A stretch of 64,000 bases of DNA from a virus (IMGVR_UViG_3300037313_000284:76865-140864); one strand, 5' to 3'; shown: positions 6,138 through 22,445, counted from the first letter of the stretch. Numbers and translations are program-made. Notes: generated by a model not told the origin, from the letters alone.

Positions 6138-6237
6138 TATTCTACAATCCCTATAGTGGCGCAAATAACGCCACCTAGTCCAACGGTGGCCGCGTATTCC
6201 CTAATAAATTACTGAAAATAGACATAGCTAATAAACG

Positions 6238-6267
6238 AAAATACCCTCACGTGTTAGGTGAGGGTAT
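6238..6267 (-). terminator. intrinsic terminator
   Basis: ATACCCTCAC/GTGAGGGTAT stem followed by U-tract on minus strand. Confidence 0.7.
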
Positions 6268-6274
6268 AGGATAT

Positions 6275-6500
6275 AAAACAAAAACGCCACCCTTCAGCGA
6301 GAAAGGGTGGCGTCTTCGGAGGGTCTAACCGGCAATTGCTTGGGAGAGAACGCGTACTGTGCGGGGGTTAGTACGCGGGGCGACTGTCCTAGCGATTGCC
6401 ACCCTCTATGGCAACAAGAGTTAGTATGGGCTAGTCCACTTAAGCAGTGAACACACTAGCAAGGCTGTAACTAGCGTTGCGTGTCATCTAACTCGCCATT
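6275..6500 (-). ncRNA. candidate structured non-coding RNA (~230 nt)
   Basis: Late motif at 6506-6517 upstream; nested stems AUGGC-GAGUUAG/CUAACUC-GCCAU, GCUAGU/ACUAGC, GAGGGU/ACCCUC, GGCAAUCGCU/AGCAAUUGCC, CGCGUACU/AGUACGCG; ends in terminator ACGCCACCCUU/AAGGGUGGCGU-UUUU; no convincing ORF. Confidence 0.65.
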
Positions 6501-6554
6501 ACCAACTAATAAATTAGTGGTTTAATGACACCTAACTCTTGGCCGTATTATTTA

Positions 6555-6662
6555 TCATACTCGACGTATAGTTCGTTTTCGTAGTCGGCGACGATCATTA
6601 GAATTTTTAGCTCGCCGTTCCGCGCGATTACGGGGACCGGGATCAATGATTGAATTCGCCAT
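6555..6662 (-). CDS. 35-aa Arg-rich protamine-like peptide (not in ORF track)
   Basis: MANSIIDPGPRNRAERRAKNSNDRRRLRKRTIRRV with GGAG RBS. Confidence 0.55.
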   Translation of the reverse strand: MANSIIDPGPRNRAERRAKNSNDRRRLRKRTIRRV

Positions 6663-6702
6663 GACTAGCACTCCGCTAGTGGAGGAAAGGGAGCAGACAT
6701 AG

Positions 6703-6762
6703 AAAAAGGGCCATCACGAAGTTACAAGACGCTAACGCAATCCTGAGTCCGTGATGGCCCTT
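6703..6762 (-). terminator. long-stem terminator downstream of histone-like gene
   Basis: AAGGGCCATCACG/CGTGATGGCCCTT stem followed by U-tract on minus strand. Confidence 0.6.
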
Positions 6763-6865
6763 CTGTAACACATAGAAATTAGTCAGGTCGTCAGTCTAAA
6801 CTTAAGCCTGAGCCTTAATGCGGTCCCCCTACGGTGAACCTACAGTCTTAGACCTGACTTATTAA

Positions 6866-7429
6866 CTACATCGACTTGCGCTTACCAGCCTTTTTGGCGG
6901 GCTTCGCAGCTTTCTTGGCAGCCTTAGGAGCGGCCTTTTTAGCAGCAGGCTTAGCAGCCTTCTTAACCGAAGCCTTCTTTGCAGCGGGCTTCGCGGCGGC
7001 CTTCTTAGCCGGACGGCCAGCCTTCTTAGCGGCGGGCTTAGCAACGGCCTTCTTAGCAGCCTTGGGGGCGGCCTTCGCAGGTTTAGTAGCCTTCTTAGCC
7101 GGAGCCTTAGCAGCGGCCTTCTTCGACTTAGCGACCGACTTCTTCACGTTGCCGCGAATCGTCTTCCACTTAGCAAACGTGGTCGTTTGCATGCCCTTAC
7201 CACCGGACGGACCGGGCTTCTTAGCCGGGCGACCTTGCTTGGTCTTACCGGTCTTATAACGGAGCAGCGCGGCCTTACGAATCTTGGCCTTGTGCTCGGC
7301 CGACATAGTGCGGCCCTTGGTCGACTTAGCAGCGGCGCGCTTACCAGCGGCAACAGCCTTCATGTCCTTCTTACGGGCTTTGCCCGTCTTCGGATCGATC
7401 TTCTCGTTCTTACCGAGTTTGCGAGCCAT
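6866..7429 (-). CDS. histone H1-like (Hc2/AlgP-like) DNA-condensing protein
   Basis: Lys/Ala/Pro repeats AAKKAAKPA; CAGGAG RBS. Confidence 0.8.
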   Translation of the reverse strand: MARKLGKNEKIDPKTGKARKKDMKAVAAGKRAAAKSTKGRTMSAEHKAKIRKAALLRYKTGKTKQGRPAKKPGPSGGKGMQTTTFAKWKTIRGNVKKSVAKSKKAAAKAPAKKATKPAKAAPKAAKKAVAKPAAKKAGRPAKKAAAKPAAKKASVKKAAKPAAKKAAPKAAKKAAKPAKKAGKRKSM

Positions 7430-7562
7430 AGCTCTTCTCCTGATAGGTGGTACTCAATTAGTATAAACCTTCGAAGCGTACTAAGTGCTACCACCTATGC
7501 GGAGGGTCAGTGATAACTTGCTTCGAATGACGCTAATAAATTAGTAATATCGCGTAAGTTAT

Positions 7563-8207
7563 TTAGGCAGCCCACGTACCTTCAAGAGTCACGTCGAAAG
7601 TTTCGGCATTAGCCGGAACATAAGCGCCATTAACTTCGGCGATAGCATAGAAGTTATACGTGTCCGACGGGCTAAACGTAATAGCGCTACCAACAGCCGG
7701 AACGCCAGTACCCACCGCGTAAGCAGTGCCGCCGAAGAAAGCCGTTTGCGCGATATCAATACGACCAACAAGACCGGTAACCGAAGCCACGCCTAAGATA
7801 CCAGCCGATTGTAATGCTGCGTTGTCCGCAACGCTTAGCACCGGCAGAGTATCAAACAGGTAGAGACGGAAAGCCGCGTTAGTAACGCTAGCCGCGCTCT
7901 TACGAATACGAGCGCGTTCAATACGCAGACCGCGACCGGGAGCCGGATTAACAAACGAAAAGAAACCGCCAGCCGCAGAGGCCAAGGCGTCGCCTGCCGC
8001 GTACGCATTGGTATCAGTCGGACGCGTAAGCACATTCGATTTAATAGCAAACGCACTATCCGTGAACTGCGTAACGGTAATCGAGCCGTTGGCGATAAAA
8101 CCCTTCACTTCGCCGGGCAGCACAGTGAACGTTGCAGCTTCCGAAGCGGCAAGGATAGCATTGCCGAGACGAATGTCGGAATTGGTCCTGTTGGTAACTA
8201 GATACAT
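7563..8207 (-). CDS. putative virion structural protein
   Basis: Ala/Gly/Thr-rich beta protein with TRPTDTNAYAAGD; late motif upstream. Confidence 0.6.
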   Translation of the reverse strand: MYLVTNRTNSDIRLGNAILAASEAATFTVLPGEVKGFIANGSITVTQFTDSAFAIKSNVLTRPTDTNAYAAGDALASAAGGFFSFVNPAPGRGLRIERARIRKSAASVTNAAFRLYLFDTLPVLSVADNAALQSAGILGVASVTGLVGRIDIAQTAFFGGTAYAVGTGVPAVGSAITFSPSDTYNFYAIAEVNGAYVPANAETFDVTLEGTWAA

Positions 8208-8334
8208 TGGAATGATCCTATCTATGGGCGTTAGTATTATTAAATTATCTATTTACGATTGCAGCGAGGGTATTCTTTTAGCGGTACCGGCGGCCGCTTA
8301 AAATCTTCACTAATAATTATTGCCGAATTATTTA

Positions 8335-8832
8335 TTATTTCTTTTTACGCTTAACTTGCTTGCCAGTTTTAACATCTACTTTGATCGCGCGGGCCATACC
8401 GACTTTCGGCCGGTAGAAATGATGCTTCCCTTCAGTTCGATCAAACACAAATCTTCCGCCTTGAATACTAGGCTTAGGCTTTTTAACACCAGCAGATTTG
8501 GCGGTACTGAACTTAGCTTTAGCGTTAGATTTCTTTTTAGCAGCGTGATAAGCTTTCAAGCCTTCGCTAATAGCTTTACGGTGTGCAGCAGTCTTGACAC
8601 TGCGTCCGTCTGGATTAGCTTTCGGTCCTCGTTTGAATCGCTTCTCGTCTACCTTTGGCGCGGGCTTTGTTCCACGTTTAAACTTAGTAACAGGTTTAGG
8701 GGTTTTGAGCGGCTTCTTTTTCTTAGCAATGCGTCCTGGGCCACCAACTCTTTCAATGTTGCCGTTAGAACGCTTAATGATTTTTTCTTTCTTCCCCGTC
8801 CTGGGGTTAACTTTCGTAGTGACCTTAGCCAT
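8335..8832 (-). CDS. Lys-rich basic DNA-binding protein
   Basis: Very basic; AAHRKAISEGLK helix echoes AEHKAKIRKA in 6866-7429. Confidence 0.75.
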   Translation of the reverse strand: MAKVTTKVNPRTGKKEKIIKRSNGNIERVGGPGRIAKKKKPLKTPKPVTKFKRGTKPAPKVDEKRFKRGPKANPDGRSVKTAAHRKAISEGLKAYHAAKKKSNAKAKFSTAKSAGVKKPKPSIQGGRFVFDRTEGKHHFYRPKVGMARAIKVDVKTGKQVKRKKK

Positions 8833-9310
8833 GATCTTCGTCCATCATTTGCGCAAGCGCGCTAGCTGATAATAAAACTTCGCCGCGCTTAGCGGTGTCT
8901 TCACCTAGACGAGAAGCTTGATTAACTTCGTCACCCCACATGTCCTTATCGAATAGGATCGTGCGACCGTACCCGATACCGATAGAGCAAGGGAAATCCG
9001 AAGCTAGTTGCTTAGCCGCCGACACCGCGTCTTTCACGTTAGGAAAGATCGCAAAGATATCGTCAGCTTCCATCTTTACTATCTCGCCGCCGTGCGTCTC
9101 TACGATAGGCTTACTGACAATTTGAAAGCGACGTATTTGCAGCATAGCCGCGAATACGCCTTCGGTTTCTGTAATGCGACTAAACCCGCTCATGTCCGCA
9201 ATGAACACGGCGACGTCTCTGCCGAATAACCGATCCATATCCTCAGATATGTAAGGTTCGGTTTCCGGTCGCGCTAATACTAAATCAAGCAGGCGCGTAA
9301 GAAACATCAC
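8825..9310 (-). CDS. stand-alone class III adenylate/guanylate cyclase
   Basis: FIADMSGFS, GGEIVKMEADD, SIGIGYG, DMWGDEVNQASRL, GEVLLS motifs. Confidence 0.85.
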   Translation of the reverse strand: MMFLTRLLDLVLARPETEPYISEDMDRLFGRDVAVFIADMSGFSRITETEGVFAAMLQIRRFQIVSKPIVETHGGEIVKMEADDIFAIFPNVKDAVSAAKQLASDFPCSIGIGYGRTILFDKDMWGDEVNQASRLGEDTAKRGEVLLSASALAQMMDEDHG

Positions 9311-10716
9311 CGCATTCCTTGAACAGGCTCAACGCCAGCACCAAACACTAACTGCTTGTTGCCTTTCACGTTGAACAAGGGATAGAGCATAGTTTCGGTT
9401 AGTGTAGGCTCCATAAGTTCGGTCATAACCGAGCAAGAGATAACTTGACCCCTAGCAGTTTCAACCGGTGTGACTGTGGTTACGCGCCACATCAATCTAT
9501 ACTTATTATCGCCTATTAACGAGTTGCGGTCAACTTTACCTACCTCAGGTGGTAAAGACACTTCAATACCATCACCTCGGATTGCAACGGAATGTCCAGC
9601 GGTTTGGTTGAAGTTAGTAACTTGTCCGCGCACCACGTTGTGAATGAGAGTCACGTCAACGTGCGTCAAATCAATCGGGTAGTCCTTAGTGTTGGTAGCC
9701 CGAATGACTAATGTTTGCAGGTTGACTTGGCTAACGCTCGCGAGTTGCGCAATAGGTGCGTACGTCGTGCCGTCTAGCGAGTACGTAATAACTACGTCAG
9801 ACGCGTGTCGGCCATCATAAGCCACGGCCCATGCAAACTGGAAATAGTTAGGGCAGTTTAGCCCGCCCCATTCCACGTAGTCGTCAGGGTCCAGATGATA
9901 AACCGGAGGCATAACGCTTTCATCCGCGCCTAGCATCGGAACCATAGTCGCGTTGACAGACGATAATACTAACCGGGTACCGCCTAATAGATCATAGCCG
10001 CCTAGCAAGCCCGTTCCGAAGCAGATTGGGCACGTCTGCGAACTGCCAATGACGTAAGCGTTGTCCGCAAGAATGCTATCGGGATTCCACGCGTCTTTTT
10101 CGTAGTCCGCTATTAACTCCTCACCGAATTCGTCGGAAGGGCTATCGGAATACTCGTGATCATATTCCCCTGCGTGGCGTCCATCGTGCATCGGACCTTC
10201 GTACGGACCAACCGAAAGAGAGTTAGTAGTGTAAGGGTCGGTGGTGCCACTAGTGGAAGTCTTCGGCGGAGGTACTTCATCGTCAAATACATCGGCTTCC
10301 GAAAAGTTATGATCAGCACGATAACTTTTGGTTTGCGCGAAGTGGTGGTCATCGGCGGACACGTCTCTAACACGAACGCGCAAGGTACTGCCTGCCGTGT
10401 CCAGATCGTCAGTGGTGTCTTCTGCTACGCCTAGCACATGCGAATTACTAGACGGCGTTTCCGCCACGTGATCGCTAGGCTCAGTTTCGCAACCGCAACG
10501 AACACCGAATTTCTTAGGGGAGAAAACGAACAACTGCGTAGCGTCAATCGAAATCGCTTCCGCAATACGACGCGATGCAGCAGACGTTAATAAATCGATA
10601 CGGTCCTGTGCGGCGTGCGCTATACCAGCATTAGGCGGCACAATTCCATGCACTCGACCGGGCGAACCGGCGTGTTGCCCTGGTACGGACCGAGTGCCGA
10701 ATCTGAAACGGGTCAT
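9307..10716 (-). CDS. putative neck / head-completion protein
   Basis: CGC ... CPICFGTGLLGGY motif seen in large-phage neck proteins. Confidence 0.5.
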   Translation of the reverse strand: MTRFRFGTRSVPGQHAGSPGRVHGIVPPNAGIAHAAQDRIDLLTSAASRRIAEAISIDATQLFVFSPKKFGVRCGCETEPSDHVAETPSSNSHVLGVAEDTTDDLDTAGSTLRVRVRDVSADDHHFAQTKSYRADHNFSEADVFDDEVPPPKTSTSGTTDPYTTNSLSVGPYEGPMHDGRHAGEYDHEYSDSPSDEFGEELIADYEKDAWNPDSILADNAYVIGSSQTCPICFGTGLLGGYDLLGGTRLVLSSVNATMVPMLGADESVMPPVYHLDPDDYVEWGGLNCPNYFQFAWAVAYDGRHASDVVITYSLDGTTYAPIAQLASVSQVNLQTLVIRATNTKDYPIDLTHVDVTLIHNVVRGQVTNFNQTAGHSVAIRGDGIEVSLPPEVGKVDRNSLIGDNKYRLMWRVTTVTPVETARGQVISCSVMTELMEPTLTETMLYPLFNVKGNKQLVFGAGVEPVQGMR

Positions 10717-10730
10717 GAGGCTGCTCGGGT

Positions 10731-10756
10731 TAATTTATTAGCTGAAGTTAAATTAG
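10731..10756. promoter_or_regulatory. pair of oppositely oriented late-promoter motifs between divergent genes
   Basis: TAATTTATTAG on plus (10731) and CTAATTTA on minus (10749-10756). Confidence 0.5.
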
Positions 10757-10788
10757 CTGCTATCCAGTTAGTGTAGTAGCTCCGCGTA

Positions 10789-11421
10789 ATGGAGATAGCA
10801 GTGTCTATCGGATATGAGTTGCCGTTATTCCCGCTTCAAGCGAAGGCTCACAACAAGGTTATTTACCGATTAGGTGAAGGTGAACCTAGCATTATATGGG
10901 CGGGTCGGCAGGCCGGTAAAACGGAAATCTGTCGGCGTGTTTCACATGCGTTTGAAGCCGCACACCAAGTCGGCATCAGTTATTCACCGGAACATTTCGA
11001 AGACTTTTTAATCGAAGACTATGACCACTTCCATCCGGCGGAAGTGACATTGGAATTCGGGGCAGAGCTAGAGCCGATTTGGGAAGCATTAACTCCGCAA
11101 ACGGTCGTGTTCATTGATAACCTATTTGAACTGCCATTCGCGGAAGAGTTGTTTTATCGAATAGCGCACGTCACGCCGCATATAGTCGCTATGACCAGCA
11201 TAGGCATTGAAGACTCCGGTTGGGACGTTAGTAAAACTATAGCCTACATGATTGGTCCGTACGCCACTTGGGAAATGAACCCGATGATGGATCAAGAGGC
11301 GCTTAGAGAATCGCGGTCGATGACACCCGGTGATCGTCGTAAGTTCAATGATGAATTATTAGCTTGCGTGAACACGAAGTACATGTGGAAGGATTGGGCA
11401 TGCAAAACTTCCAAAAGCTAA
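10789..11421 (+). CDS. terminase-type P-loop ATPase-like protein (short, no nuclease domain)
   Basis: Q motif, AGRQAGKTE Walker A, VVFIDN Walker-B-like; only 210 aa. Confidence 0.55.
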   Translation: MEIAVSIGYELPLFPLQAKAHNKVIYRLGEGEPSIIWAGRQAGKTEICRRVSHAFEAAHQVGISYSPEHFEDFLIEDYDHFHPAEVTLEFGAELEPIWEALTPQTVVFIDNLFELPFAEELFYRIAHVTPHIVAMTSIGIEDSGWDVSKTIAYMIGPYATWEMNPMMDQEALRESRSMTPGDRRKFNDELLACVNTKYMWKDWACKTSKS

Positions 11422-11708
11422 CTATCGAAGAATTAGTGGTGTTGCGTAAGGCTTGTCATGATCGGCCATTTGCCGGAGATATGTTAATCGGCGACACGTT
11501 CATGCCGCAAGAGTTTCACGGGACTGCTAGCGAATTCGATATCTTGAATAAACTAGCGGACTACTATCTGATTGATTACCACGACGAAGGTTGGTTCGGA
11601 ACTGACAAAGGTTACGAACTGTTAGATTATTATCGCCCATGTCTCGGCAATTACGGATTAGCCGGACCGACACCAGGGCAATTGAAAGCATTTATATATG
11701 GCACATGA
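11400..11708 (+). CDS. winged-helix-like hypothetical protein
   Basis: Start MQNFQKL; L.D..LI......TDKGYELL resembles a wing motif. Confidence 0.55.
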   Translation: MQNFQKLTIEELVVLRKACHDRPFAGDMLIGDTFMPQEFHGTASEFDILNKLADYYLIDYHDEGWFGTDKGYELLDYYRPCLGNYGLAGPTPGQLKAFIYGT

Positions 11709-12396
11709 AATTTGGCTGGGGGCTGATCCTGGAACTGCTCACTTCGCTGTTACTGTAATCCGATATTGTACGGAAACCCGGCGCAAGAAAGTGCTGTACG
11801 TCGGCATGATCGAAAACCCGATCAAGAACCTGACAGAAACCGCAGTTACTATGAAGCGTCGTAAAAAGAAAAACGGCGTAGCACAACCGCATATCGATAA
11901 GGATGAACCGCGTCTGTCTATTGCGGTGAAGCTGTTCACTGACGAGATTGATTGGCTACTAACTACGTATAAGGTCACGCACTTCGTAGGCGAGCGTTTC
12001 CAAGCGCGCGGGCGCATGATGGGTGATACCATCGAGGCCGTAAGCACGATGATGGGGATTATTATCGCCATGTGTCAACGGCGTCGTATTAAATTCCTGA
12101 CCACCATTGCAGGGGTCTGGAAAGGCGCCATCGCACGGCAACGCTGTGACTTGCCAAAGCTCTACGCAAATGGTATTATTATATATCAAAAAGCGTTGGC
12201 AGAAGCAGGCTTCAAAGCAACGCAAGGTGAGGCTAGTGATATCGTTCATATGATCGATAGTTCGTTAATAGCCTTGTGGCATGCAGATCGAGAACAAGTA
12301 TGGGCGAACAGTTCACTCTTACGCGTACTAACAGAGCGCTTGCTTCGTCAAGCAAGCGCAGGCGAGTCATCATCCGAGCGGCTGAACGAATCGTAG
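11698..12396 (+). CDS. ruvC: RuvC-like Holliday junction resolvase
   Basis: LGADPG, VGERFQ, WK and C-terminal HMIDS acidic motifs. Confidence 0.7.
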   Translation: MAHEIWLGADPGTAHFAVTVIRYCTETRRKKVLYVGMIENPIKNLTETAVTMKRRKKKNGVAQPHIDKDEPRLSIAVKLFTDEIDWLLTTYKVTHFVGERFQARGRMMGDTIEAVSTMMGIIIAMCQRRRIKFLTTIAGVWKGAIARQRCDLPKLYANGIIIYQKALAEAGFKATQGEASDIVHMIDSSLIALWHADREQVWANSSLLRVLTERLLRQASAGESSSERLNES

Positions 12397-12422
12397 CCGC
12401 CAGCAAGATCACTACGTGTGCA

Positions 12423-12755
12423 ATGGCCCCGGAACTAAGCTACAAGGGGTCAGCTTGTCCGGTTATTAATTGCTACATGCGCAACGAACAAAACGGAGCC
12501 TGCACCGCAGCCGAAGAGGCTAAAGCGAGTAGCAAGCTAATGCGTGAAGCAATGACGATTGTCGAAATCATCTATGCGACGCGTGAAGCCCCGGAGTGGG
12601 CCAAGTTTACTATGGTCACCACCCTCAATGAGAAGCACGAACGCTTTATTAAAGAGGCTGATCTAGACGCGGGTAAGCTGCAATACGTGCTAGATCAAAA
12701 TCCCCTTTACGCGACTACACTGCTTAGTGTGTTCAAATCGCAAGCGGAGGAATAA
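12423..12755 (+). CDS. hypothetical protein with CPxxxC motif
   Basis: ORF track; start uncertain. Confidence 0.55.
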   Translation: MAPELSYKGSACPVINCYMRNEQNGACTAAEEAKASSKLMREAMTIVEIIYATREAPEWAKFTMVTTLNEKHERFIKEADLDAGKLQYVLDQNPLYATTLLSVFKSQAEE

Positions 12756-12756
12756 C

Positions 12757-12969
12757 ATGTTGATATTGATTTTAATTATTATCGGACTTGCCTTGCTCGG
12801 GTTTAGCGAGCACTACCTGCGAAAGCACCTGGATTGGGTAAAGACGTGGGGCTTTCCGGAAGAACCTGCGCATGGCTATATTAACTATCCTATAGCTCTC
12901 GTGCTTACGTTAGTAGCCACCGTGCTAGAGGTTACTGCTTTCGCATTAATGATAGCCAGATTCGTATAG
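12757..12969 (+). CDS. small 2-TM membrane protein
   Basis: GGAGG RBS, two hydrophobic helices. Confidence 0.7.
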   Translation: MLILILIIIGLALLGFSEHYLRKHLDWVKTWGFPEEPAHGYINYPIALVLTLVATVLEVTAFALMIARFV

Positions 12970-12978
12970 AGAAAACGA

Positions 12979-13212
12979 ATGGACCCGATTATTGCAACTG
13001 CATTGTTAGGGTTAGCTGCCTGCATAAGCTTTATGTTTGCGTTAGGCAACGCGCTCTATTGGGAAGACGCAAGTCGATTGGCCTATTACAAAGAAAACAA
13101 TAGCATCAATGGCATTTGGACTGGCGTTTGGGTAATCGTGTTTCTTCTTTGTGTTTGCGGGTTAGTTGTTTACACGCCCAAGGCGTTCTTAGTGCTTAAA
13201 GCTTGTTTATAA
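12979..13212 (+). CDS. small 2-TM membrane protein
   Basis: Two hydrophobic helices. Confidence 0.65.
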   Translation: MDPIIATALLGLAACISFMFALGNALYWEDASRLAYYKENNSINGIWTGVWVIVFLLCVCGLVVYTPKAFLVLKACL

Positions 13213-13300
13213 GGTCTGCCGTCTCGATCAATTTATTGGCGAGGCTGAGAGATTATAAGCCTCGGCCAAACCAATTTGCATCGAGAAGTGGTAGACTACA

Positions 13301-13918
13301 ATGGAATCCAAGAGCTTTAACCTGTACGAACAACAAACTAAAGTCCGCGAAATCCTTAAGGATGATAGCAGCGACTCGTTCTTTATTCTAAACGTTTCGG
13401 ACCGCCCCGACCGTAACCAGAAGGCCACGCGTGAACTCGCTATGGTCTTGTTCGCGGTTACTGTTGACGGTGAATCGCGTATTATTCGCGTGCCGCCTAG
13501 CTGGGTTCCGATTGACGCGGGCATGCAAGCGCCTAAGAAGGTTATTGCGGCGAGCGGTGAATTCCAACGCGCGTTAACGGCTGGCGCTATCGTGGTGCTG
13601 GACGATGAGACTGGTCGCCGCATTATTAGCGCTGACACTGAGAGCCGCGATGAATATGCTAAGGTCATGGCTATCGCGCAAAACGTCAACGGTTCGGGCC
13701 AAGGTTATCAGTCTTATAACCAATCGGAATCGGAAGCGGCGGATGATCCGTGGGCCAACGTTTCGGCTAGCGTGAAGGTCAACGTGCAGGAAGTCGAAGC
13801 TAATAACATGTCAGAAGTTGAATTCCGTAGCTTCCTGCGTCGTGAGGCTCGCTCGATTTCCGCGCTGGATAAGAAGTATATCTCGGACAAGCTGCCTACT
13901 CTGAACATCACGGTCTAA
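13301..13918 (+). CDS. hypothetical phage protein
   Basis: 205 aa; CAATTTATTGG at 13229 upstream; terminator downstream. Confidence 0.8.
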   Translation: MESKSFNLYEQQTKVREILKDDSSDSFFILNVSDRPDRNQKATRELAMVLFAVTVDGESRIIRVPPSWVPIDAGMQAPKKVIAASGEFQRALTAGAIVVLDDETGRRIISADTESRDEYAKVMAIAQNVNGSGQGYQSYNQSESEAADDPWANVSASVKVNVQEVEANNMSEVEFRSFLRREARSISALDKKYISDKLPTLNITV

Positions 13919-13939
13919 CCTAAGACAGTCCAAGACTCA

Positions 13940-13974
13940 AAAAGCCCCGGTGCATGCACCGGGGCTTTTCTTTT
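13940..13974. terminator. bidirectional intrinsic terminator
   Basis: AAAAGCCCCGGTGCATGCACCGGGGCTTTT between convergent genes. Confidence 0.9.
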
Positions 13975-13982
13975 GCCTATTA

Positions 13983-16900
13983 CTAGACTGCGACTATTTC
14001 TACCTCGTTAATAGTGGGGTCACCACCACCAGCGCCAGTAGCCGACGAGCTAGTGCCTACTGCAATCCAAAGTTCCGTGGACAGCGCCGTGAAAGTAAAC
14101 GACGGATGATCATAAGGCTTCGGAGAGTCGGTAGACGGGATGCTAGTATTTAGATACTCACTAGTGATAGCGTTAGCCGATCTAGACGCACCTAATTGCA
14201 ACGAAGTTGTATTAGTGGTGTTTTGATCGGTAGCGCCCATCGCTAGCTTAATAGTAGCACGATACGTAACGCCGACAGTAAGCGGCTGTCTTGCGGCAAG
14301 GTTCATACGCAGAGTCGGGAAGCGTCCGGTATTAGTAACTACCGGCTGACCTTTGTCTCCGTAAATGACGCCTTGCGCCACCACAACGGTGTCTTCACCC
14401 ACGGTCTTAGTCTTAACAAGATCGGGGTTGTGCACCACGTTCATCGGCGTCCACGTGCCACCAGTGATTTGCTGGATGGATTCGTTTTGTGCCGAGGTTA
14501 ACACTTCATTGTAGTATAGTTTGAACGAGGCTTCGAAACCAGTCTTAATAATCTGCCCGGCGGGTTGTGCAGGACGCGCCGGAACTGTGATCGTATTACT
14601 AAGCACTTCGAAACCACCCACCGTGACTTTGGTCCTATGCGACGTGTTAAGGTCGGCAAATTCCAAGTCATAGCGAGCCGTTGCAGCCGCTCCACTAATA
14701 GCAACAGTGTCGCGTTGGTGTTCGAACGTAAACGTGCCTGAGATATTACCCGACCACAAACCATAGCCAGTATAAATTTGCGTGTTTTGGTTAAGGTCAA
14801 TAGCAGAACCAGCTTCGATAAAGTCCGGCCCATCCCAGCCGCCATAACGACGAACGAATTGTTTCGGAGCTTCTAGGTTGACAACCGCGCCAGAAGCCGC
14901 ATTCGTAGGTGTGACAGTTAATCTTTCTTGACCACCCAACTTTTTCGGAAAGTTGAATGACCACGTAGACCAACCAAACGCATTACGACGACGGAACTGC
15001 ACGTAATACTTACGCGTAGGCAAGTTCGAAACTGAACCGGAAGCCGGAGCGTTAGTAATAGTCGTCCACGTCATCTGATCGATGCTATAGCGAACCTGAT
15101 ATTCTAGAATCGGATAACCAGGAGTAGTGTGTCCAACGTTCGTTAAGTTCCAGGCGAAACCAGTCGCAGTAGCAGTTAATATGCCTAGCGTAGCAGCCTT
15201 ATCCGAACCAGCGTTAGTCTTGAACGGTGTAATACACTCCGGACGACCTTCCCAAACCGGGAGAGCCATTAGATTTAGTGTATTACGTAATAACGTGTAG
15301 AGCGCTTGATATTGCGCAGACAAGAACGTTGCCGTTCCAGTCTCATACATGTCCATGGTTAGGAATGTCATGTAACGGTCAACGAAAGCAACAGCCGCGC
15401 CTAGTTGACCAGCGGTCGCCCAAGTATTACCGCCAGCTAGAACCGACCAACCATCCCATCCGTTTGGACCGTTTCTAAAGCACCCGATATTAAGCATTTC
15501 GGGAACGCCTGCGCCACATGAAGTACCCAGATAGTCAGCGTCAATCTGACTATCGAAGTTACTAGCAATCGGCGGCGGTTGTGACGGAGTTTGAGTACCC
15601 CAATGAGGTATACCCACGTCTTCTGGATAGAACGTCCTGAAATAAACGTCGTGGTTACCAGGATAATTAGTAGCAATCCCGACGAATTCAACAGGAACGT
15701 AGAACGGTTGGTGCGTAGGGTTGCTCTTAATATTTAAGCATTTCGTCATCAACCCGGACACTTTTTCCCAATAGGCGTGTCCGAATAATTGTACGAATTG
15801 TTTATGCCCGTTCCACTGCCCAGCACCCGCAGCACCACGGAAGCTTCTATGGTCATAGATATCTAAGTTATTAGCGCCAAACGTCAGCGCTGTAATCCAA
15901 GCTGCTTGCGGCGCTGACTGTCCGGCCGCCAAGACTGCCGTAAGCCACTTAGACCAAGTGATACCGAAGTCCCGTGAATATCCGCTGTCACTAATCTTAT
16001 CGACCATGAATCTACGACGTTTTTCCGCGTCGTGAATCCACCAAGGTTGTAGGGCGGTAAAATATTCTGCGCCCGTTGCGGTAACAGTTGCTAAGTCTGG
16101 TGCACCAGACGGCAGAGTGAATCCATTACCCAAAGCTGCGCGGTTAGCCATACTAACAGTATAGCGAGTGGATTTACTGGTAGCGCTAGGCGAAGGTGCA
16201 ATCGCGCCGTTCGGCGGCACGGAGCTAACAATATGTAGCACGCCGTAACCATCGAATATCCGCCATTGCCCAACTTGTGGTGTAGTTAATCCACTTCGAC
16301 GAATAGATTTAACAACTGATTTCTCGTTACCAATAGCGATGGCAATCGGGGAACTCTTAGTCGCGGGGTCCACGTTTAGTGTGTGCGTGTACGTAGTCGA
16401 AGAAGCACTACCGATGCCGCCTCCGTCAGCCCACACCGCTAGCATGCCGTCGAAGCCTTGCGCTTCGCTGCCGTAAACCATCCACGGGTCAATCATCACG
16501 CCGTTGGCCCAATACGATTGGCCTGTCATTAGGGTGGCGCTACCACCCGGAGGGGTCATCGTAAAGTTACCGGAAGCCGTATTAACACCATCTGGTGTAA
16601 TCTGCGTGATATTAAACACGCGATCCGAGATCGCGAACGGCTGACCGTCGGCGTAGCGACCCACAAGCACCGGAACGCTAAAGTAGAAAGTCACATCACC
16701 ATGAGTGATCGACGATTGTAGCGAAGTGGGCGTCACCGAAGCAATAACCGTGACAGCAATTGCAAAATTGGGCGACGTTAGACCGGTAGCGACGCTAGTG
16801 GCACGCACGATAACATCGTAAACGTTATTACCGCCAACGTCGACGGGGTTTTCGAAATCCTTAGGCGAACCTTGCCACACAAGGTTACTACCGACGATTT

Positions 16901-17099
16901 GGAAGTTGGCCGCGTCGGCTCCGCCAACGATTGCCCAAGTAACGGACTCGTTAGCGGTTAGCGCGTGAGTTAGCGTAGTTTCGTCAACTACGACGACCGT
17001 ATTCGCCATCGTAACCACAGGGGCGGGTAACGGGTTATACGTTAATAACGCCGCTACGCTGGTGCTCATGAAGCACCCGACTTTAGATAGTTGAGGCAT
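13983..17099 (-). CDS. tail fibre / receptor-binding protein (cadherin-like, FN3 and CBM-like modules)
   Basis: GGADAANF...DFENPVDVGGNNVYDVIVRAT cadherin-like repeat; YYVQFRRRNAFGWSTWS FN3 end. Confidence 0.7.
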   Translation of the reverse strand: MPQLSKVGCFMSTSVAALLTYNPLPAPVVTMANTVVVVDETTLTHALTANESVTWAIVGGADAANFQIVGSNLVWQGSPKDFENPVDVGGNNVYDVIVRATSVATGLTSPNFAIAVTVIASVTPTSLQSSITHGDVTFYFSVPVLVGRYADGQPFAISDRVFNITQITPDGVNTASGNFTMTPPGGSATLMTGQSYWANGVMIDPWMVYGSEAQGFDGMLAVWADGGGIGSASSTTYTHTLNVDPATKSSPIAIAIGNEKSVVKSIRRSGLTTPQVGQWRIFDGYGVLHIVSSVPPNGAIAPSPSATSKSTRYTVSMANRAALGNGFTLPSGAPDLATVTATGAEYFTALQPWWIHDAEKRRRFMVDKISDSGYSRDFGITWSKWLTAVLAAGQSAPQAAWITALTFGANNLDIYDHRSFRGAAGAGQWNGHKQFVQLFGHAYWEKVSGLMTKCLNIKSNPTHQPFYVPVEFVGIATNYPGNHDVYFRTFYPEDVGIPHWGTQTPSQPPPIASNFDSQIDADYLGTSCGAGVPEMLNIGCFRNGPNGWDGWSVLAGGNTWATAGQLGAAVAFVDRYMTFLTMDMYETGTATFLSAQYQALYTLLRNTLNLMALPVWEGRPECITPFKTNAGSDKAATLGILTATATGFAWNLTNVGHTTPGYPILEYQVRYSIDQMTWTTITNAPASGSVSNLPTRKYYVQFRRRNAFGWSTWSFNFPKKLGGQERLTVTPTNAASGAVVNLEAPKQFVRRYGGWDGPDFIEAGSAIDLNQNTQIYTGYGLWSGNISGTFTFEHQRDTVAISGAAATARYDLEFADLNTSHRTKVTVGGFEVLSNTITVPARPAQPAGQIIKTGFEASFKLYYNEVLTSAQNESIQQITGGTWTPMNVVHNPDLVKTKTVGEDTVVVAQGVIYGDKGQPVVTNTGRFPTLRMNLAARQPLTVGVTYRATIKLAMGATDQNTTNTTSLQLGASRSANAITSEYLNTSIPSTDSPKPYDHPSFTFTALSTELWIAVGTSSSATGAGGGDPTINEVEIVAV

Positions 17100-17490
17100 T
17101 TAGACTTATCCCATCGTCTGGAGGGATGACACCAACGAGTAACCATTGTTGTCGAGGTATGTCAGGCAACGTTAGTGTCTGATTGGCGAATTCGTGCAGG
17201 CTATCACCACAATAGATGATCATGCCGTTAGTAATAAAGTAGTGGCACCTACCATGGATGCCGTCTTCATCGTTGGGTCCTCCCCAACTAATATTCATAG
17301 ACGGTTGAAAGGTAGGCGAGTCATGGTTCAGGTTATAAGACCACCTAGCTCCGGTATGCGTCGGCTGGTCTACGTAAAAGGGATGCAGGTGTTTGCATGC
17401 GGGGCACCAATGCGCGTAAACCGCGTTATCGCCCCATTCGTAATGGCGCATTATTTTAGCGCTAAGCCACTGCGCTTTGACTTGGCCCAT
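17083..17490 (-). CDS. DUF6527-like Cys/His protein
   Basis: HWCPACKHLH, WSYNLNHDSPTFQPS, RCHYFITNG, YCGDSLH. Confidence 0.7.
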   Translation of the reverse strand: MGQVKAQWLSAKIMRHYEWGDNAVYAHWCPACKHLHPFYVDQPTHTGARWSYNLNHDSPTFQPSMNISWGGPNDEDGIHGRCHYFITNGMIIYCGDSLHEFANQTLTLPDIPRQQWLLVGVIPPDDGISLNASTI

Positions 17491-17547
17491 AGAACGCGGC
17501 TCCTAATGTTCACTTTAATAAATTAGCGCTATACCGATTAAACAAAG

Positions 17548-17579
17548 AAAAAGCCCCCGGAGCCTAGGCTCCGGGGGCT
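17548..17579 (-). terminator. intrinsic terminator
   Basis: AGCCCCCGGAGCC/GGCTCCGGGGGCT stem plus U-tract on minus strand. Confidence 0.85.
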
Positions 17580-17583
17580 GGTG

Positions 17584-17769
17584 TTAGTCTTTAGGTTTAG
17601 TGACGTTGGGTTTTGCACGAACCAATTCTGACATTGGCGATTCTTCTAGTTGCCGCATGATGCGTTCGCGTTCAGCGTCGGACAACTCCGGCGCGGGTTC
17701 GAACCCAAATGAGAACGGTTCGTCGTCTCCCTCGTCGTCGACTAACATATTGAATACTCGATGATGCAA
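17584..17769 (-). CDS. small acidic hypothetical protein
   Basis: Lies between a late motif (17793) and a terminator. Confidence 0.5.
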   Translation of the reverse strand: MHHRVFNMLVDDEGDDEPFSFGFEPAPELSDAERERIMRQLEESPMSELVRAKPNVTKPKD

Positions 17770-17833
17770 CGGCTTCTCGCTGAGCCTGACTGTAAATTAA
17801 TCGAAGTGTCAGGGCTCCGGAGCCAACTCTTAA

Positions 17834-20800
17834 TTAGTTGGGTAGTGCAGTCTCGGCCCACTTCTTACGCAACACGTCCGCGTATTCGTGAGTGATGTAG
17901 AGAGGGAATTCAGGCGTAGGCAACTTACTAACATCGATATCGCCGCAGTTGTAAGACAGCGTGATATGCGGGTTAAAAGTTGGGTACTTCCACACGGCCC
18001 CTAAATCTTGCGAGAGGTCAAAACGTTCTTGCATGATTGGAGAGTCGTACTTAAGCACCAGTACCTTGTGGTCGCCGTCTTCCCAAACTTCCAGCTTGAA
18101 AGTATCAGGACTTACTAATAATCCACTACCCGTCAGCATATAATCGACCGGCTCCCAAGGTTCGCTTAGGGGCTTTTCGCTATAGACCAACGTAGAGTGC
18201 ATCTTAGTAAAATCGGTAATCGGATTTTGAATCAAGTTGACCGCAATCCAATGCTCGATTTGACGTTGCGTGCGCTTACTAAACTTCACACCAACGTAGA
18301 CGCCTTCTGCCGCGACTTCGAATTGGCTAAAATCAAACGAAGCCTCTTCGTCGTCCTCGTGTCCACTCTCAGGCAAGATGCCCGCTAGTGAAGCTAGCTT
18401 CTCGACATTGTGATAGAGTTTAATACGGGTCGTTTTCTTTCCTTGTAGAAACTGCCAGAACGCTTTTTGGCCTGGAAGACCCGCGCCCCAATCTTTAGTA
18501 ACGTACGCAGCGAGCTTACCCGGAAATGGGGTAGCTTCTTTGCCGCTAGCCACAAGATAAGGACGAATGCGATTAGCAATATTTGCCAAATCACGCGCAG
18601 CGCCTTTACGCTGTTTCGCCTTAATCTTTTTAGTGATTTCAGCAAGTTCGTGTGCGAAGACATAGTTCAGGAACGCCGCTATGGGTTTCGCCTCGCGCTT
18701 ACGCACCAGACCTATGTTATTAGTAGTAGCTGTTTCGACCGGAACGATCATCAGCTTCTTAGTCTTCTCATTCACACCGAGCTTAAGGTTGAACGTCGTC
18801 TTACCATCCGCTTCTCTAACCTTCGGCGCTTTGACCGAACGTTCGGGAGCTTCTGGTTTATCCGGCGCTTTTGCCTTAGGCGGCTCTTCGTCCTTTTTAG
18901 TAGGCTTAGAGCTACGTGCTGCGTCTTCTTCCTCTAGGATTCTAAAGAACGCGTCGAATGCTTCCTTGCGGGTAGCAAACTGTTCGTCCTCACCAACCCC
19001 ATCGCGGTTGAAGATAATAAACCACTTGCCGGTTTTGATCACCTTATCGATGATGCCGCCGTTTTCCGGGTCTTTATTAGTAGCCGCGCCGCCGGGCGTT
19101 GCTTCGGTCCAACCGGGAGGTAGATCAGATTTAGGTTGCTGCGTCTGAACAGTATTAACAGGCGCATTCTCTAGCGCCGTCGCGTTTTCTTTCAACCAAT
19201 CCAGGCCCGCTTGCGTTAGCTTAACAAATTCACGCGGTCCCTGAAATCCTTGCATAAGCAGTCCACGAGCTATTAACTTGTCGAGAGTGTTACGAAGGAA
19301 ATCTGCTGCAACTTGCGGAGCCTTGCCTCGAATATCCTGTACATAAACGACCCATTCCGGATCATCCTTGAACATAAGAAGCACGGTACGCTCGTCGCCA
19401 GTTAACGCTTCGCCTGCGAACTTCGGCAAGAACGGGAAATTCATCGAGCGATCGTTCTGTCGAACCATGCTTTGCAAGTTAGTAAATTGATTACGCCTGC
19501 GCAGCAAGAATCGACGCTTCCACATTTCGAATGAACCGCTTTCGCTGTCCGATCCGAATTGGTTAGCCGGAACTTCCTCGCCTGGTTTGAAGTTAGTCCA
19601 CAGTTTATCCCAATAGCCTTGTAGACCAATTGGCACTTTGTTAACCAGCGAACTCTCAGAATTAACTTCGGCGACAGAAGGCGCGTGGAACGTACCCAAA
19701 TACCACATATAACCGCCGAAAGCTTTTTGATACACTTCCGGCAATTCGTCTAACGGTAGGTCGCGATAGCTATCCATAAATTTCTGGACTTCGGCACCTG
19801 ATAGTAAAGCGTCTTCGAGAACTTGTTGCTTCTCTACCGCTGTCATTTCGGAGTATGACTTCCGCTCATAAGAACGGTCTTCGTCATTAACGTCCGTCGA
19901 CAATTCGGCACGCATGGTGTCGTCTAGATTAGGTACGACCGGAGTTTGCAGCGACTTGTCTAATACCGAACCTTCTTTACTAATAACAGTAGCCGCGATA
20001 CGCGCCAAGATATCCATAGCTGCGTCTTTATACGCGTTAGGAAGCTGGGCTTCGTACTGACCAAACACGTACAACGCGACCGTGAAGTTACGGTAGTTGT
20101 CGTCGTGCGGCATATTAGTAGATGTCAGGAACGGATTGTTGCCACCGAACAGGGTCGTCAGCCAATAGGTACTAGCTAACTCGTTGGCGAAATCGTCGAA
20201 ATCCATCTGCCCTTCCGGCTTGCCACCGGTCAGGTCAGAGAACGGAAGGTTATTAGTATAATAGCTGATTGCCGCTACCGATTTAAGTGCGGCATTTGCC
20301 ACTTCGCGTTGCGAGCGCGTGCCGTCCTTACTAATCATCGTCAACGCTATATAGGCAGAGTCAACGAGTACCCGACGTAACGGACCACCACCCTCTTTCA
20401 CGTTCGCAGCGGCTTGTTCAAGCGTTGCGAAGTAGCGAGAGTCTTCTTTATCCATAGTGCCGGAATTACCAACGCCGTAAGTAGTAATTCTATCCGTAAA
20501 TTTAACAGCCCACGCCTGTCGTTCAGCGCCTTGCCGCATGCTACTCTGTGTAGTCGTTTGTGTTGGCTGGTTAATAGCTTTGATAGGCGGGGCATGGATT
20601 AAATCGCGACCAACGTAAACGCCGTCGGCTTTTACCGTGGCTTTACCCTGTGCACGCTTCATCGCCCGCTTAATCATCCCAAAAACAGTCGGGTTGTTCC
20701 ACACGTCGTACATGTGTGGAACCCATTCTTTGGATTTAGGCGAAGCACGCTTCAAACCTTGAACTTTGATTCCCGGTTTGTCAGTAACCCATTTCTTATC

Positions 20801-21583
20801 GTCTAAGAAACGTTGTGACTGCGTAATCTTATAGGTATCAAACAACGCAGCTAGTTCTTTATCAGACGTACGGTAAATATCAACGCCGGTGTCCCAATCG
20901 ATTTTGTTGAAACCGTTGATATTAGAATCAATGAATTCGCCGTAGAACCTACTACCCGGATGCGCTAACGTAGTAACCGTACGTTGACCTTTAGTCCGGA
21001 ACGCTGAATTCTTGTCAGCGATAGTCGTAGCGACCTTGAATTGGAAGTCATTAACGATATCGTCGAACACACCGGGGAGCATATAGGCGAATCGCATGAA
21101 ATCAGGACCGTCTTCTTTAAATCGGAAGACCGCCAACGTCATGTTACTACGCAGCTTACCTTCAGCGTGCTTAAGCATCGTTCCCGAGTAATCGGTGCTC
21201 GGAACTTCAATGCCGAAATCTCTAGCGCCGTCGGCCACTTCTTCTAACTTCGCCCAAAATTCTGCGTGGTGCGAATCGTGTTCACCGCCTCTGAAATCTT
21301 TGACGACTAGGAACATGTACGCGTGCACCATTTCGTGCAGCAGAATTCCGTCCAGTCCTTCTTTCTTATAGTCGTAACGGTTGTCTAACTCGATGATGCA
21401 TAGGTCTTTATTAACCACACCGTCCACCGGATAGGGATGGCGGAACACACCTAATGCACCACGCGACGTCACGTTAGCTAGATTTCCGACGCCGAGACGT
21501 AGGTCTTCTGGCAGTTCATTATTAAAGAACAATCGGTTGAACCGTAGGTATTGTTCCCTAAGCGGATAGTCTTCGGTCTTCAT
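17834..21583 (-). CDS. polyvalent protein: N-terminal SprT-like metalloprotease plus C-terminal Acb1/gp57B-like 2H phosphodiesterase
   Basis: LLHEMVH...HH..F at N-terminus; GVYVGVKFS...HSTLVYS...LEVW...LGA....FNPHITLSY...EY...W at C-terminus. Confidence 0.85.
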   Translation of the reverse strand: MKTEDYPLREQYLRFNRLFFNNELPEDLRLGVGNLANVTSRGALGVFRHPYPVDGVVNKDLCIIELDNRYDYKKEGLDGILLHEMVHAYMFLVVKDFRGGEHDSHHAEFWAKLEEVADGARDFGIEVPSTDYSGTMLKHAEGKLRSNMTLAVFRFKEDGPDFMRFAYMLPGVFDDIVNDFQFKVATTIADKNSAFRTKGQRTVTTLAHPGSRFYGEFIDSNINGFNKIDWDTGVDIYRTSDKELAALFDTYKITQSQRFLDDKKWVTDKPGIKVQGLKRASPKSKEWVPHMYDVWNNPTVFGMIKRAMKRAQGKATVKADGVYVGRDLIHAPPIKAINQPTQTTTQSSMRQGAERQAWAVKFTDRITTYGVGNSGTMDKEDSRYFATLEQAAANVKEGGGPLRRVLVDSAYIALTMISKDGTRSQREVANAALKSVAAISYYTNNLPFSDLTGGKPEGQMDFDDFANELASTYWLTTLFGGNNPFLTSTNMPHDDNYRNFTVALYVFGQYEAQLPNAYKDAAMDILARIAATVISKEGSVLDKSLQTPVVPNLDDTMRAELSTDVNDEDRSYERKSYSEMTAVEKQQVLEDALLSGAEVQKFMDSYRDLPLDELPEVYQKAFGGYMWYLGTFHAPSVAEVNSESSLVNKVPIGLQGYWDKLWTNFKPGEEVPANQFGSDSESGSFEMWKRRFLLRRRNQFTNLQSMVRQNDRSMNFPFLPKFAGEALTGDERTVLLMFKDDPEWVVYVQDIRGKAPQVAADFLRNTLDKLIARGLLMQGFQGPREFVKLTQAGLDWLKENATALENAPVNTVQTQQPKSDLPPGWTEATPGGAATNKDPENGGIIDKVIKTGKWFIIFNRDGVGEDEQFATRKEAFDAFFRILEEEDAARSSKPTKKDEEPPKAKAPDKPEAPERSVKAPKVREADGKTTFNLKLGVNEKTKKLMIVPVETATTNNIGLVRKREAKPIAAFLNYVFAHELAEITKKIKAKQRKGAARDLANIANRIRPYLVASGKEATPFPGKLAAYVTKDWGAGLPGQKAFWQFLQGKKTTRIKLYHNVEKLASLAGILPESGHEDDEEASFDFSQFEVAAEGVYVGVKFSKRTQRQIEHWIAVNLIQNPITDFTKMHSTLVYSEKPLSEPWEPVDYMLTGSGLLVSPDTFKLEVWEDGDHKVLVLKYDSPIMQERFDLSQDLGAVWKYPTFNPHITLSYNCGDIDVSKLPTPEFPLYITHEYADVLRKKWAETALPN

Positions 21584-21607
21584 AACTTTAACTCAATGCG
21601 CTAAGGG

Positions 21608-21946
21608 TTATTGCTCACTCCAGTCCTTACATGTAACCTTACCGCCGCCGTCAGACAGGCAGTAAATAGCGCCACGATAAATACCGTTGGTCGGAAAGAA
21701 GAACGGCGGGCTGGCGGGCTTCAGCCGGAAATAACCGGGAGCCCCGATAGCTACGCTGTTGTCGTAACCCCACCAAAGATCATTGGTCTCGCTGTTGTTT
21801 TGGATTACTAATCCAGCCCGGTCAGCGTTGGCGGGAATGAGCAACATCGGAACGATGCCGACCATCTTGCTATGGTCGTTTACGTCATCGGCATCAATGG
21901 TGACTGTCGGACGAAAGTAGTTGCTAGACATTTTTAATAATCCCAA
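21608..21946 (-). CDS. small beta-rich virion protein
   Basis: PANADRAGLVIQNNS motif; late cluster. Confidence 0.6.
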   Translation of the reverse strand: MGLLKMSSNYFRPTVTIDADDVNDHSKMVGIVPMLLIPANADRAGLVIQNNSETNDLWWGYDNSVAIGAPGYFRLKPASPPFFFPTNGIYRGAIYCLSDGGGKVTCKDWSEQ

Positions 21947-22361
21947 CAGAACGCTTGAGCGATTCCAACTCAGCCTTAGTCGTGGCGAGTTCGGAAGCTA
22001 ACGAATTAATAAGTAAGAACAGAGTAGACGTAGGATCGATGGCGAGCATTCCGTCTGTCCAGTCGCGAACAAGTGTGCTTAACAACGGACGTTCGTTTAA
22101 CGTCTGCGCAATAACACCGAAGCGTTGCTCTTCTGAGTCCATACCGGACTCAGGTGTATAACGATAGGCAACGATTAACTTCTCGATCTCTTCAGCTTTA
22201 AGGCCATCAATGATTGGTTCAATCTCTCGCTTCAGGCGTGCGTCAGAGGCTATTAGGGCAGGAGAATCGATACCATCCACCTTGTCCGCATCCATTCCGG
22301 TTCCGGCACCTTGATAATTTTTGTGCCATACCTCGCCGCCGTTTACCTTTAGCCTTGCCAT
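21924..22361 (-). CDS. tail-fibre-associated intramolecular chaperone (peptidase S74-like)
   Basis: WH..Y.GAGTGMDADKVDG fibre motif, then SDARLK, YRY, FGVIAQ and a terminal coiled coil. Confidence 0.75.
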   Translation of the reverse strand: MARLKVNGGEVWHKNYQGAGTGMDADKVDGIDSPALIASDARLKREIEPIIDGLKAEEIEKLIVAYRYTPESGMDSEEQRFGVIAQTLNERPLLSTLVRDWTDGMLAIDPTSTLFLLINSLASELATTKAELESLKRSVGIIKNV

Positions 22362-22407
22362 CGTCCGGTCCTTTATAACTCAGCATTAAATTAGCGCTTA
22401 GAGCACG

Positions 22408-22445
22408 AAAAAGCCCCGCTACCAGCTAAGGCAACGAGGCTTTTT
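22408..22445 (-). terminator. intrinsic terminator
   Basis: AAAAAGCC...GGCTTTTT imperfect hairpin. Confidence 0.6.

Follow-up and report, generated by a model that had tools for sequence, protein, structure and literature searches.

A phage protein with a SprT-led scaffold and a C-terminal Acb1 domain: a probable polyvalent-type counter-defence protein

The 2H phosphodiesterase Acb1 needs no metal and cuts 3'-5' cyclic di- and trinucleotides open beside an adenosine. It has hitherto been studied as a free early enzyme, and in the forms known to us it is a stand-alone protein of about 150 amino acids (aa). Head-packaged, injected anti-restriction proteins are known from the Dar system of phage P1 (DarA, DarB and DdrB). 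Here we describe P0001, a gene on the minus strand of a 64,000-nucleotide (nt) stretch of viral DNA (hereafter, the window; IMGVR_UViG_3300037313_000284:76865-140864), which makes up the final 64 kb of an IMG/VR virus record of 140,864 bp with an estimated completeness of 68%. The 1249-aa product is best explained, with a probability of about 0.78, as a polyvalent-type counter-defence protein in which a conserved scaffold led by a SprT-like protease carries interchangeable C-terminal cargo, in this case Acb1.

The catalytic tetrad of Acb1 is formed by two HxT motifs, and the residues that stack on the bases, contact adenine N6 and form a lid have been described (Hobbs et al. 2022, PMC9117128). 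For polyvalent proteins, which occur in phages and conjugative elements, zincin peptidases were recognized as a hub domain by Iyer et al. 2017 (PMC5512222), who also reported 2H domains in such proteins, including MuF and portal fusions, and proposed that they degrade defence nucleotides; 12 polyvalent MPTase clades are distinguished there, and the term 'SprT' is absent from the text. Because polyvalent 2H enzymes degrading defence nucleotides were already proposed in 2017, the conceptual gain from P0001 is modest. What is new is a SprT-led scaffold family with a fixed place after the primase gene, a junction motif, swapping of Acb1 and ART-PolyVal domains, and a fission variant.

In comparison to T4 gp57B and FBB1 Acb1 (PDB codes: 7T26/7T27), the P0001 domain has the same fold, HxT tetrad, stacking aromatics, glutamate and lid tryptophan, and metal-independent cleavage of the cyclic oligonucleotides of CBASS (antiphage signalling based on cyclic oligonucleotides) would be expected of it too; it differs in forming the last 12% of a 1249-aa protein, with 31–36% identity to T4-group Acb1. 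Like polyvalent proteins, P0001 is large and multidomain, with a zincin peptidase and a 2H domain in one chain; domains of its family recur in DarA_N/InPase and MuF_C/LPD proteins, and ART-PolyVal is present in one relative. Unlike them, its peptidase is of the SprT/Spartan type, no MuF, portal or DarA domain lies within or adjacent to it, and the scaffold is a fixed, lineage-specific core that is positioned after the primase and varies at the C-terminus only. With SPRTN/Spartan (PF10263; 6MDW/6MDX), P0001 has in common the HExxH motif with a downstream histidine and the fold, to which a winged helix of a nucleic-acid-binding type is added, whereas a zinc-binding subdomain and ubiquitin/PCNA motifs were not identified in P0001. 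The protease could act on itself, on host proteins or on DNA-bound proteins. As regards the P1 Dar system, a small domain of P0001 (domain C, below) is found elsewhere in proteins with DarA_N and DarA_C, the idea of a counter-defence made in advance is common to both, and the phage genome encodes a 1910-aa SNF2-helicase protein beside the portal gene that we read as DarB-like; however, P0001 itself has no DarA or DarB domain, and packaging is only proposed for it.

The terminal domains of P0001

The gene forms an open frame from its ATG over the coordinates given in the earlier note. Its features, in window coordinates, are:

17834..21583, minus strand: whole gene P0001; ATG start, uninterrupted frame, 1249 aa
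17852..18307, minus strand: Acb1 2H phosphodiesterase domain, residues 1093–1244 (Pfam PF23474)
17960-17968, minus strand: HxT motif 2, H1206/T1208, aligned to 7T26 and RB69 gp57B
18191-18199, minus strand: HxT motif 1, H1129/T1131, aligned to 7T26 and RB69 gp57B
18338..18349, minus strand: junction motif EEAS, residues 1079–1082, between scaffold and cargo
18359..18847, minus strand: domain D, residues ~913–1075, the most conserved module
18911..19141, minus strand: domain C, residues ~815–891, LPPGWTE...GGIID...WF.IFN plus a helix
19148..19414, minus strand: winged helix-turn-helix, residues ~724–812, from a structure match
19424..20545, minus strand: helical region, residues ~347–720, from the model of residues 1–812
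20594..21151, minus strand: beta-rich region, residues ~145–330, local model confidence (pLDDT) mostly 70–90
21179..21583, minus strand: SprT/Spartan-like zinc protease, residues 1–135, with HEMVH at 83–87 and H105 as third ligand
21323-21337, minus strand: the HEMVH motif, residues 83–87

The C-terminal domain was matched by the Pfam profile PF23474 over model positions 1–143/144 (E 3.7e-31; 108.2 bits against a cut-off of 27), and PHROG 755, the T4 57B family, matches it as well as Pfam does. When the 140.9-kb record was searched with PF23474 in six frames, P0001 was the sole match (113.6 bits). The alignment to FBB1 Acb1 (7T26) has an E value of 2.3e-16. All of the Acb1 motifs listed in the earlier note are present (GVYVGVKFS, HSTLVYS, LEVW, LGA, PHITLSY and EY..7..W) and align column for column with FBB1 Acb1 and RB69 gp57B; in the same two alignments, Y1096, W1167, E1233 and the lid residue W1242 occupy the corresponding Acb1 positions.

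An AlphaFold model of residues 790–1249 (mean pLDDT 84) was used for fold comparison. Its Acb1 part matched 7T26/7T27 in Foldseek with a TM-score of 0.91 and a root-mean-square deviation (rmsd) of 1.7 Å, and FBB1 Acb1 in VIA with a Z-score of 19.6, 1.6 Å rmsd and 33% identity, 139 of 140 residues being aligned. Because the profile match, the fold, both HxT motifs and the stacking, adenine-contacting and lid residues are all kept, the domain is regarded as a competent Acb1, its activity being predicted from sequence and model. In a tblastn search with the whole of P0001, the Acb1 domain alone was matched, in 1243 records. Stand-alone relatives of the domain were sought twice by word index, without a match, probably because too few 5-mers are shared; a pattern scan of viral contigs was negative as well.

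The N-terminal HEMVH zinc protease reported earlier is borne out by the family as a whole: H83, E84, H87 and H105 are invariant in 8/8 aligned members. On P0001 alone the Pfam SprT-like profile (PF10263) scores 25.1 bits, just under the cut-off of 25.6, and on the relatives it scores above it (25.7–42.7 bits); the family profile matches human Spartan (6MDW) with E values of 1e-8 to 1e-10. In the model of residues 1–812 (me8c64476482f; mean pLDDT 75.5), the N-terminal part could be aligned by VIA to Spartan chain 6MDX_A with a Z-score of 12.9 and 2.7 Å rmsd over 113 residues. The domain is a SprT/Spartan-type zincin that lies outside the MPTase-PolyVal clades. Structural resemblance to the N-terminal part of P0001 was also seen in gp089 of Pseudomonas phage PaBG, a SprT-like protein of 448 aa (Foldseek E 7e-5).

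A constant scaffold with exchangeable cargo

An exhaustive HMMER search with residues 1–1092 against 1.84 billion cluster representatives returned only six proteins at E < 1e-30. At the nucleotide level, no match to the gene was found in 50,697 phage records, and in tblastn with residues 1–1092 the matches were limited to Tenacibaculum phages, in the SprT part, and to a single stand-alone domain C. Among the relatives, P0002 (1487 aa; present on two contigs from different samples, in ENA and Logan) and P0003 (2105 aa; from a third sample) combine the same scaffold with Acb1, which is internal in P0003. In P0006 (1982 aa), ART-PolyVal follows the scaffold in place of Acb1, P0005 has the scaffold and a tail with no recognized domain, and P0004 ends ten residues past domain D. 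The distant relatives P0007 and P0029 end at domain D and carry no cargo.

The locus of P0004, designated L004, has the scaffold without Acb1 and encodes Acb1 separately two genes downstream:

L004:14541-15506: split Acb1 protein, 321 aa; Acb1 at residues 49–206, then a 115-aa tail

A junction-like leader is present in this protein (residues 3–40 resemble residues 1418–1455 of P0006), and its Acb1, like those of P0002 and P0003, belongs with the P0001 domain to a small lineage-specific group (36–47% identity). It follows from the split arrangement that Acb1 needs no covalent join to the scaffold. As for the lid, it has no tryptophan in the 321-aa protein and is missing in P0002.

The pattern EE[AGT][AGST] occurs once in P0001, between domain D and Acb1, and at the equivalent junction in P0002–P0006. 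It recurs directly before Acb1 in P0003 and in the 321-aa protein of L004; P0007 and P0029, which have no cargo, lack it. The scaffold is constant and the cargo behind this marked junction is exchangeable, since the family members differ after it (Acb1, ART-PolyVal, other tails or none). The junction was inspected for a T4-like LxE cleavage pattern; the residues preceding EE vary, and for that reason no protease is assigned to it. The EEA(S/T) junction may be a cleavage site, or just a recombination joint. It also provides a handle for mining counter-defence domains, by inspection of what follows EEA in relatives.

Between the two terminal domains lie 957 residues (136–1092), close to the ~950 aa reported earlier as unassigned, for which no match was found in Pfam, PHROG or NCBIfam. 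By blastp against the relatives, P0001 can be divided into modules A (1–354), B (383–~800), C (~815–891) and D (913–~1075), followed by Acb1. Module 1–354, which includes the beta-rich region, is 36–43% identical across the relatives; the helical region (~347–720) is 30–42% identical in all of them, and no homologues of it beyond the family were found among the 1.84 billion cluster representatives. Domain D is 60% identical to P0003 and P0004, is preceded by a conserved linker, PERSVKAPKV.EADGK, and closes the minimal relatives P0007 and P0029 at their C-terminus. The earlier note had suggested that the middle region may hide new anti-defence domains; it is instead conserved scaffold, and the variable, effector-like parts lie after residue ~1079. 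Since the cargo varies behind the junction, the candidates for novelty are therefore the tails of the relatives and not the middle region.

Two multi-domain models were used for fold searches of the middle region. The winged helix-turn-helix was found with a Foldseek probability of 1.0 and, in VIA, matched dozens of MarR/HxlR/PadR chains (Z 11–12.8, 84–97 residues, rmsd ~2–3 Å). Domain C is modelled as a four-strand beta-meander with a helix (pLDDT above 90), for which the best fold match is generic (Z 7.1). Domain D, also with pLDDT above 90, has no recognizable relative and had no clear fold match in hit lists dominated by other domains; the beta-rich region had no domain-specific fold match in searches with the multi-domain models, and ESM Atlas feature searches with domains C and D gave no usable match. 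The hit lists were filled by Acb1, SprT and the winged helix, so that residues 145–720 and domain D were barely probed and therefore cannot be called new folds. There is also a weak match (E 0.04) of the family profile to the Pam3 portal protein, whose structure is solved, in its C-terminal part.

Domain C has no model in Pfam, PHROG or NCBIfam. Within the same set of 1.84 billion representatives, about 190 match solely residues ~815–885 in HMMER, in proteins that range from stand-alone forms of 67–100 aa to giants of 3000–4900 aa. The giants that were scanned contain either InPase with DarA_N (and in some cases DarA_C) or MuF_C with LPD1, LPD5 and LPD38. DarA_N/InPase and MuF_C/LPD domains are hallmarks of polyvalent proteins, and because domain C recurs in giants of both kinds, P0001 is placed in the network of polyvalent proteins, Acb1 being its swappable cargo. 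The polyvalent type of the SprT–Acb1 fusion, as first proposed in the earlier note, is supported further by the unrelated domains found together within 1249 aa (SprT protease, Acb1 and winged helix), by the varying cargo of the relatives, and by the occurrence of domain C and ART-PolyVal in other polyvalent proteins. New in itself is a 65-aa domain without prior annotation in ~190 protein clusters of this network. In Pseudomonas phage vB_PsaM_M1, domain C is encoded by a 68-aa gene among small early genes.

Site of action and alternative readings

As a polyvalent-type protein, P0001 would use its Acb1 cargo to clear the CBASS second messenger in time to prevent cell killing by the host effector, the predicted substrate being that of the homologous T4 and FBB1 enzymes, and the SprT protease or a head protease might cut at the EEA(S/T) junction. 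Several observations weigh against the polyvalent reading. The gene has no portal, MuF or terminase neighbour, unlike those of the usual phage-type polyvalent proteins, and it follows SbcD and primase genes in every relative. The protease is SprT-like and not of an MPTase-PolyVal clade (PF18818 gave no match to P0001 at E ≤ 1), domains B, C and D are without assigned activity, and the split form in L004 shows that Acb1 does not require a covalent link to the scaffold.

The proposal of the earlier note that P0001 is made late, packed in the virion, injected to pre-empt CBASS and self-cut by its protease is a refinement of the polyvalent reading, not an alternative to the domain assignments; we hold it tentatively, with the odds leaning against it. 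In its favour stand the insulated transcription unit, whose TAATTTA motif is common to the portal leader gene and connector-region genes, and the virion-type domains of the unit partners (S74 here, PAAR in the related locus L005). A link to packaged proteins of the DarA/MuF type is provided by domain C and ART-PolyVal, and the conserved EEA junction and long disordered linkers resemble processing sites. The detection of Acb1 in Schizotequatrovirus particles (bioRxiv 10.1101/2024.12.24.630238) points the same way. Against packaging, there is no adjacent structural gene, the portal gene is 27 kb away, the position is always downstream of primase and SbcD, and TAATTTA also precedes non-structural genes (BubE/DUF6527). 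The PaBG gp089 gene has DNA-repair and nucleotide genes around it, and its product carries no virion-protein annotation; the particle proteome of PaBG lists just 14 proteins (PMC7412058). A T4-type prohead protease and Terminase_6C were not found in the 68%-complete record, an uninformative result. The genomic position suits a different account, plausible if short of probable, in which nothing is packaged: the scaffold would be an intracellular, DNA-associated Spartan-like protease of a replication/repair module, removing for example proteins bound or cross-linked to phage DNA, and the tails would be fused neighbouring counter-defence genes. The synteny with SbcD-like nuclease and Toprim primase genes is kept down to ~18% identity, a Spartan-type protease with a winged helix follows the logic of DNA-dependent proteases, gp089 of PaBG is encoded beside an MmcB-like repair gene and a thymidylate kinase gene, and Acb1 is a separate downstream gene in L004. 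However, the repeated gain of varied effectors at one marked junction is a polyvalent signature rather than a housekeeping one, the DarA/MuF-associated domain C and ART-PolyVal point to polyvalent proteins, and a terminator and a promoter-like motif of its own separate the gene from the replication genes. As to location alone, synthesis and action only inside the infected cell has almost an even chance, and packaging in the virion with delivery alongside the DNA stands somewhat below evens.

For the 2H domain itself, an activity as an RNA-end, 2',3'-cyclic-phosphate or 2'-5' phosphodiesterase of LigT- or Usb1-like type, serving RNA repair or cleavage, appears quite improbable. Such activities do occur in the 2H superfamily, PHROG 755 is labelled 'RNA ligase', and RNase activity is one option given for polyvalent 2H domains (Iyer et al. 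2017, PMC5512222). LigT-type and Usb1 chains, however, reach Z-scores of 11 or less and 12–20% identity against the model, compared with 19.6 and 33% for Acb1, Pfam LigT_PEase matches P0001 only at E 0.19, and the base-stacking residues, adenine-contacting glutamate and lid tryptophan of Acb1 are kept. It is hardly credible that the fusion is an artefact of assembly, a missed stop or a frameshift: although only one metagenomic record contains P0001 and the pieces are encoded apart in L004, the frame is uninterrupted, and the order SprT, scaffold, Acb1 recurs in P0002, on both of its contigs, and in P0003.

The polyvalent reading can be taken further, to a SprT scaffold that is a virion-loaded delivery vehicle with EEA(S/T) as the protease site releasing plugged-in counter-defence cargo, which we consider unlikely. 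If it were true, the tails of P0003 (~1697–2105), P0005 (~1342–1594) and P0006 (~1364–1700) would be new counter-defence enzymes, as would the 115-aa tail of the split Acb1 protein of L004, and domain C, widespread and 65 aa long, would represent a new family of small effectors or inhibitors. The tethered, swapped and split forms of Acb1 make it possible to ask in a natural setting whether it matters when and how anti-CBASS activity is delivered.

Transcription unit and genomic neighbourhood

The source phage is a myovirus, with a tail sheath of PHROG 23 and a portal protein recognized at E 3e-114. The closest portal is that of PaBG, with 34% identity, and those of Rhizobium and Erwinia jumbo phages come next; the source phage is distantly related to PaBG-like jumbo phages, and its genome size is estimated at ~200 kb. 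Along the minus strand, genes for an SbcD-like nuclease and a Toprim primase are followed by three small genes, a terminator, TAATTTA, the 145-aa gene, the 107-aa gene, P0001, a 61-aa open reading frame (ORF) and a second terminator. The features of this unit and its surroundings are:

22408..22445, minus strand: intrinsic terminator ending the preceding unit (free energy −25 kcal/mol, z −5.4, then a U run)
22387..22393, minus strand: TAATTTA promoter-like motif, 26 nt before the 145-aa gene
21924..22361, minus strand: 145-aa protein that opens the unit; fibre-like stub plus Peptidase_S74 intramolecular chaperone domain
21608..21931, minus strand: 107-aa companion gene, ATG at 21931, adjoining the P0001 gene on its 5' side
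17584-17769, minus strand: 61-aa ORF between P0001 and the terminator at 17552..17579
17552..17579, minus strand: strong intrinsic terminator at the end of the P0001 unit (free energy −28.7 kcal/mol, z −5.4)
17083-17490, minus strand: DUF6527 protein (PF20137, BubE in newer Pfam labels), 135 aa, overlapping the start of the 1038-aa gene
13983-17099, minus strand: 1038-aa orphan protein, no Pfam, PHROG, NCBIfam or PDB sequence match
8825-9310, minus strand: 161-aa ORF, only a weak PHROG match (phrog_29613, unknown family, E 1e-6)
L006:11890-17622 = genome 68890-74622, outside the window, minus strand: 1910-aa protein, just upstream of the portal operon

SbcD, primase and the large gene occur in the same order in all six related loci, and in the most distant relatives (~18% identity) the large gene begins 97 nt after the primase. 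A stable hairpin was sought immediately 3' of the P0001 gene and not found. The 107-aa protein is 47–52% identical in L002, L004 and L005, is always encoded directly 5' of the large gene and ends in a conserved SDGGG...T.K.W; it has no family match and is a candidate for interaction with the large protein.

The 145-aa protein was identified by PF13884 (E 2.9e-8) and by matches to tail-fibre PHROGs. Of the tail-fibre chaperone genes with which the earlier note had P0001 co-transcribed, the S74-domain gene is indeed in the same unit, although it is one gene (21924-22361) and not several. Self-cleavage of this protein would leave just ~40 residues. At the equivalent position in L005 (987-1244) an 85-aa PAAR_motif protein is encoded; both are trimer or spike-tip type modules, and odd neighbours for a counter-defence protein. 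In phage RB69 (L014, 75699-79139), gene 57B, which encodes a stand-alone Acb1, is flanked by the tail-fibre chaperone gene 57A on one side and the internal head protein genes (ipI) on the other, a neighbourhood that parallels the chaperone-domain neighbour of P0001 and may be a coincidence.

TAATTTA is present in 16 copies in the record, which is near chance expectation. Because 11/16 copies are intergenic and nine lie 24–52 nt before start codons, it is nevertheless taken as a real phage-specific promoter-like element, plausibly middle or late. One copy is found 25 nt before the 68-aa gene that precedes the portal gene, several surround a head-tail-connector homologue, and none was seen in the early-looking window region 22.4–64 kb. 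An extended form, (C)TAATTTA(T/A)T, stands before at least nine genes (window 6205-22393 and genome 68001) and is likely a phage-specific promoter class. The assignment to a late virion operon in the earlier note is only partly supported: the unit is insulated and has its motif in common with the portal-operon leader and the connector region. On the other hand, the gene follows SbcD and primase everywhere and lies 27 kb from the portal, the small S74 stub is the sole virion-type partner, and since TAATTTA also precedes non-structural genes such as BubE/DUF6527 (by 29 nt), 'late' is not established. For the 469-aa and 380-aa genes behind TAATTTA, Pfam, PHROG and tblastn gave no match, and so no sign of a structural role.

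The 1038-aa orphan gene is absent at the syntenic position of the related contigs. The 1910-aa protein matches a SNF2-type helicase family (phrog_21391, E 4e-62) and, more weakly, a DNA-methyltransferase family (phrog_11801, E 5e-5), and it looks like a second, DarB-type giant or polyvalent protein of the phage; at the equivalent place the relatives encode a 1967-aa SNF2/ResIII protein.

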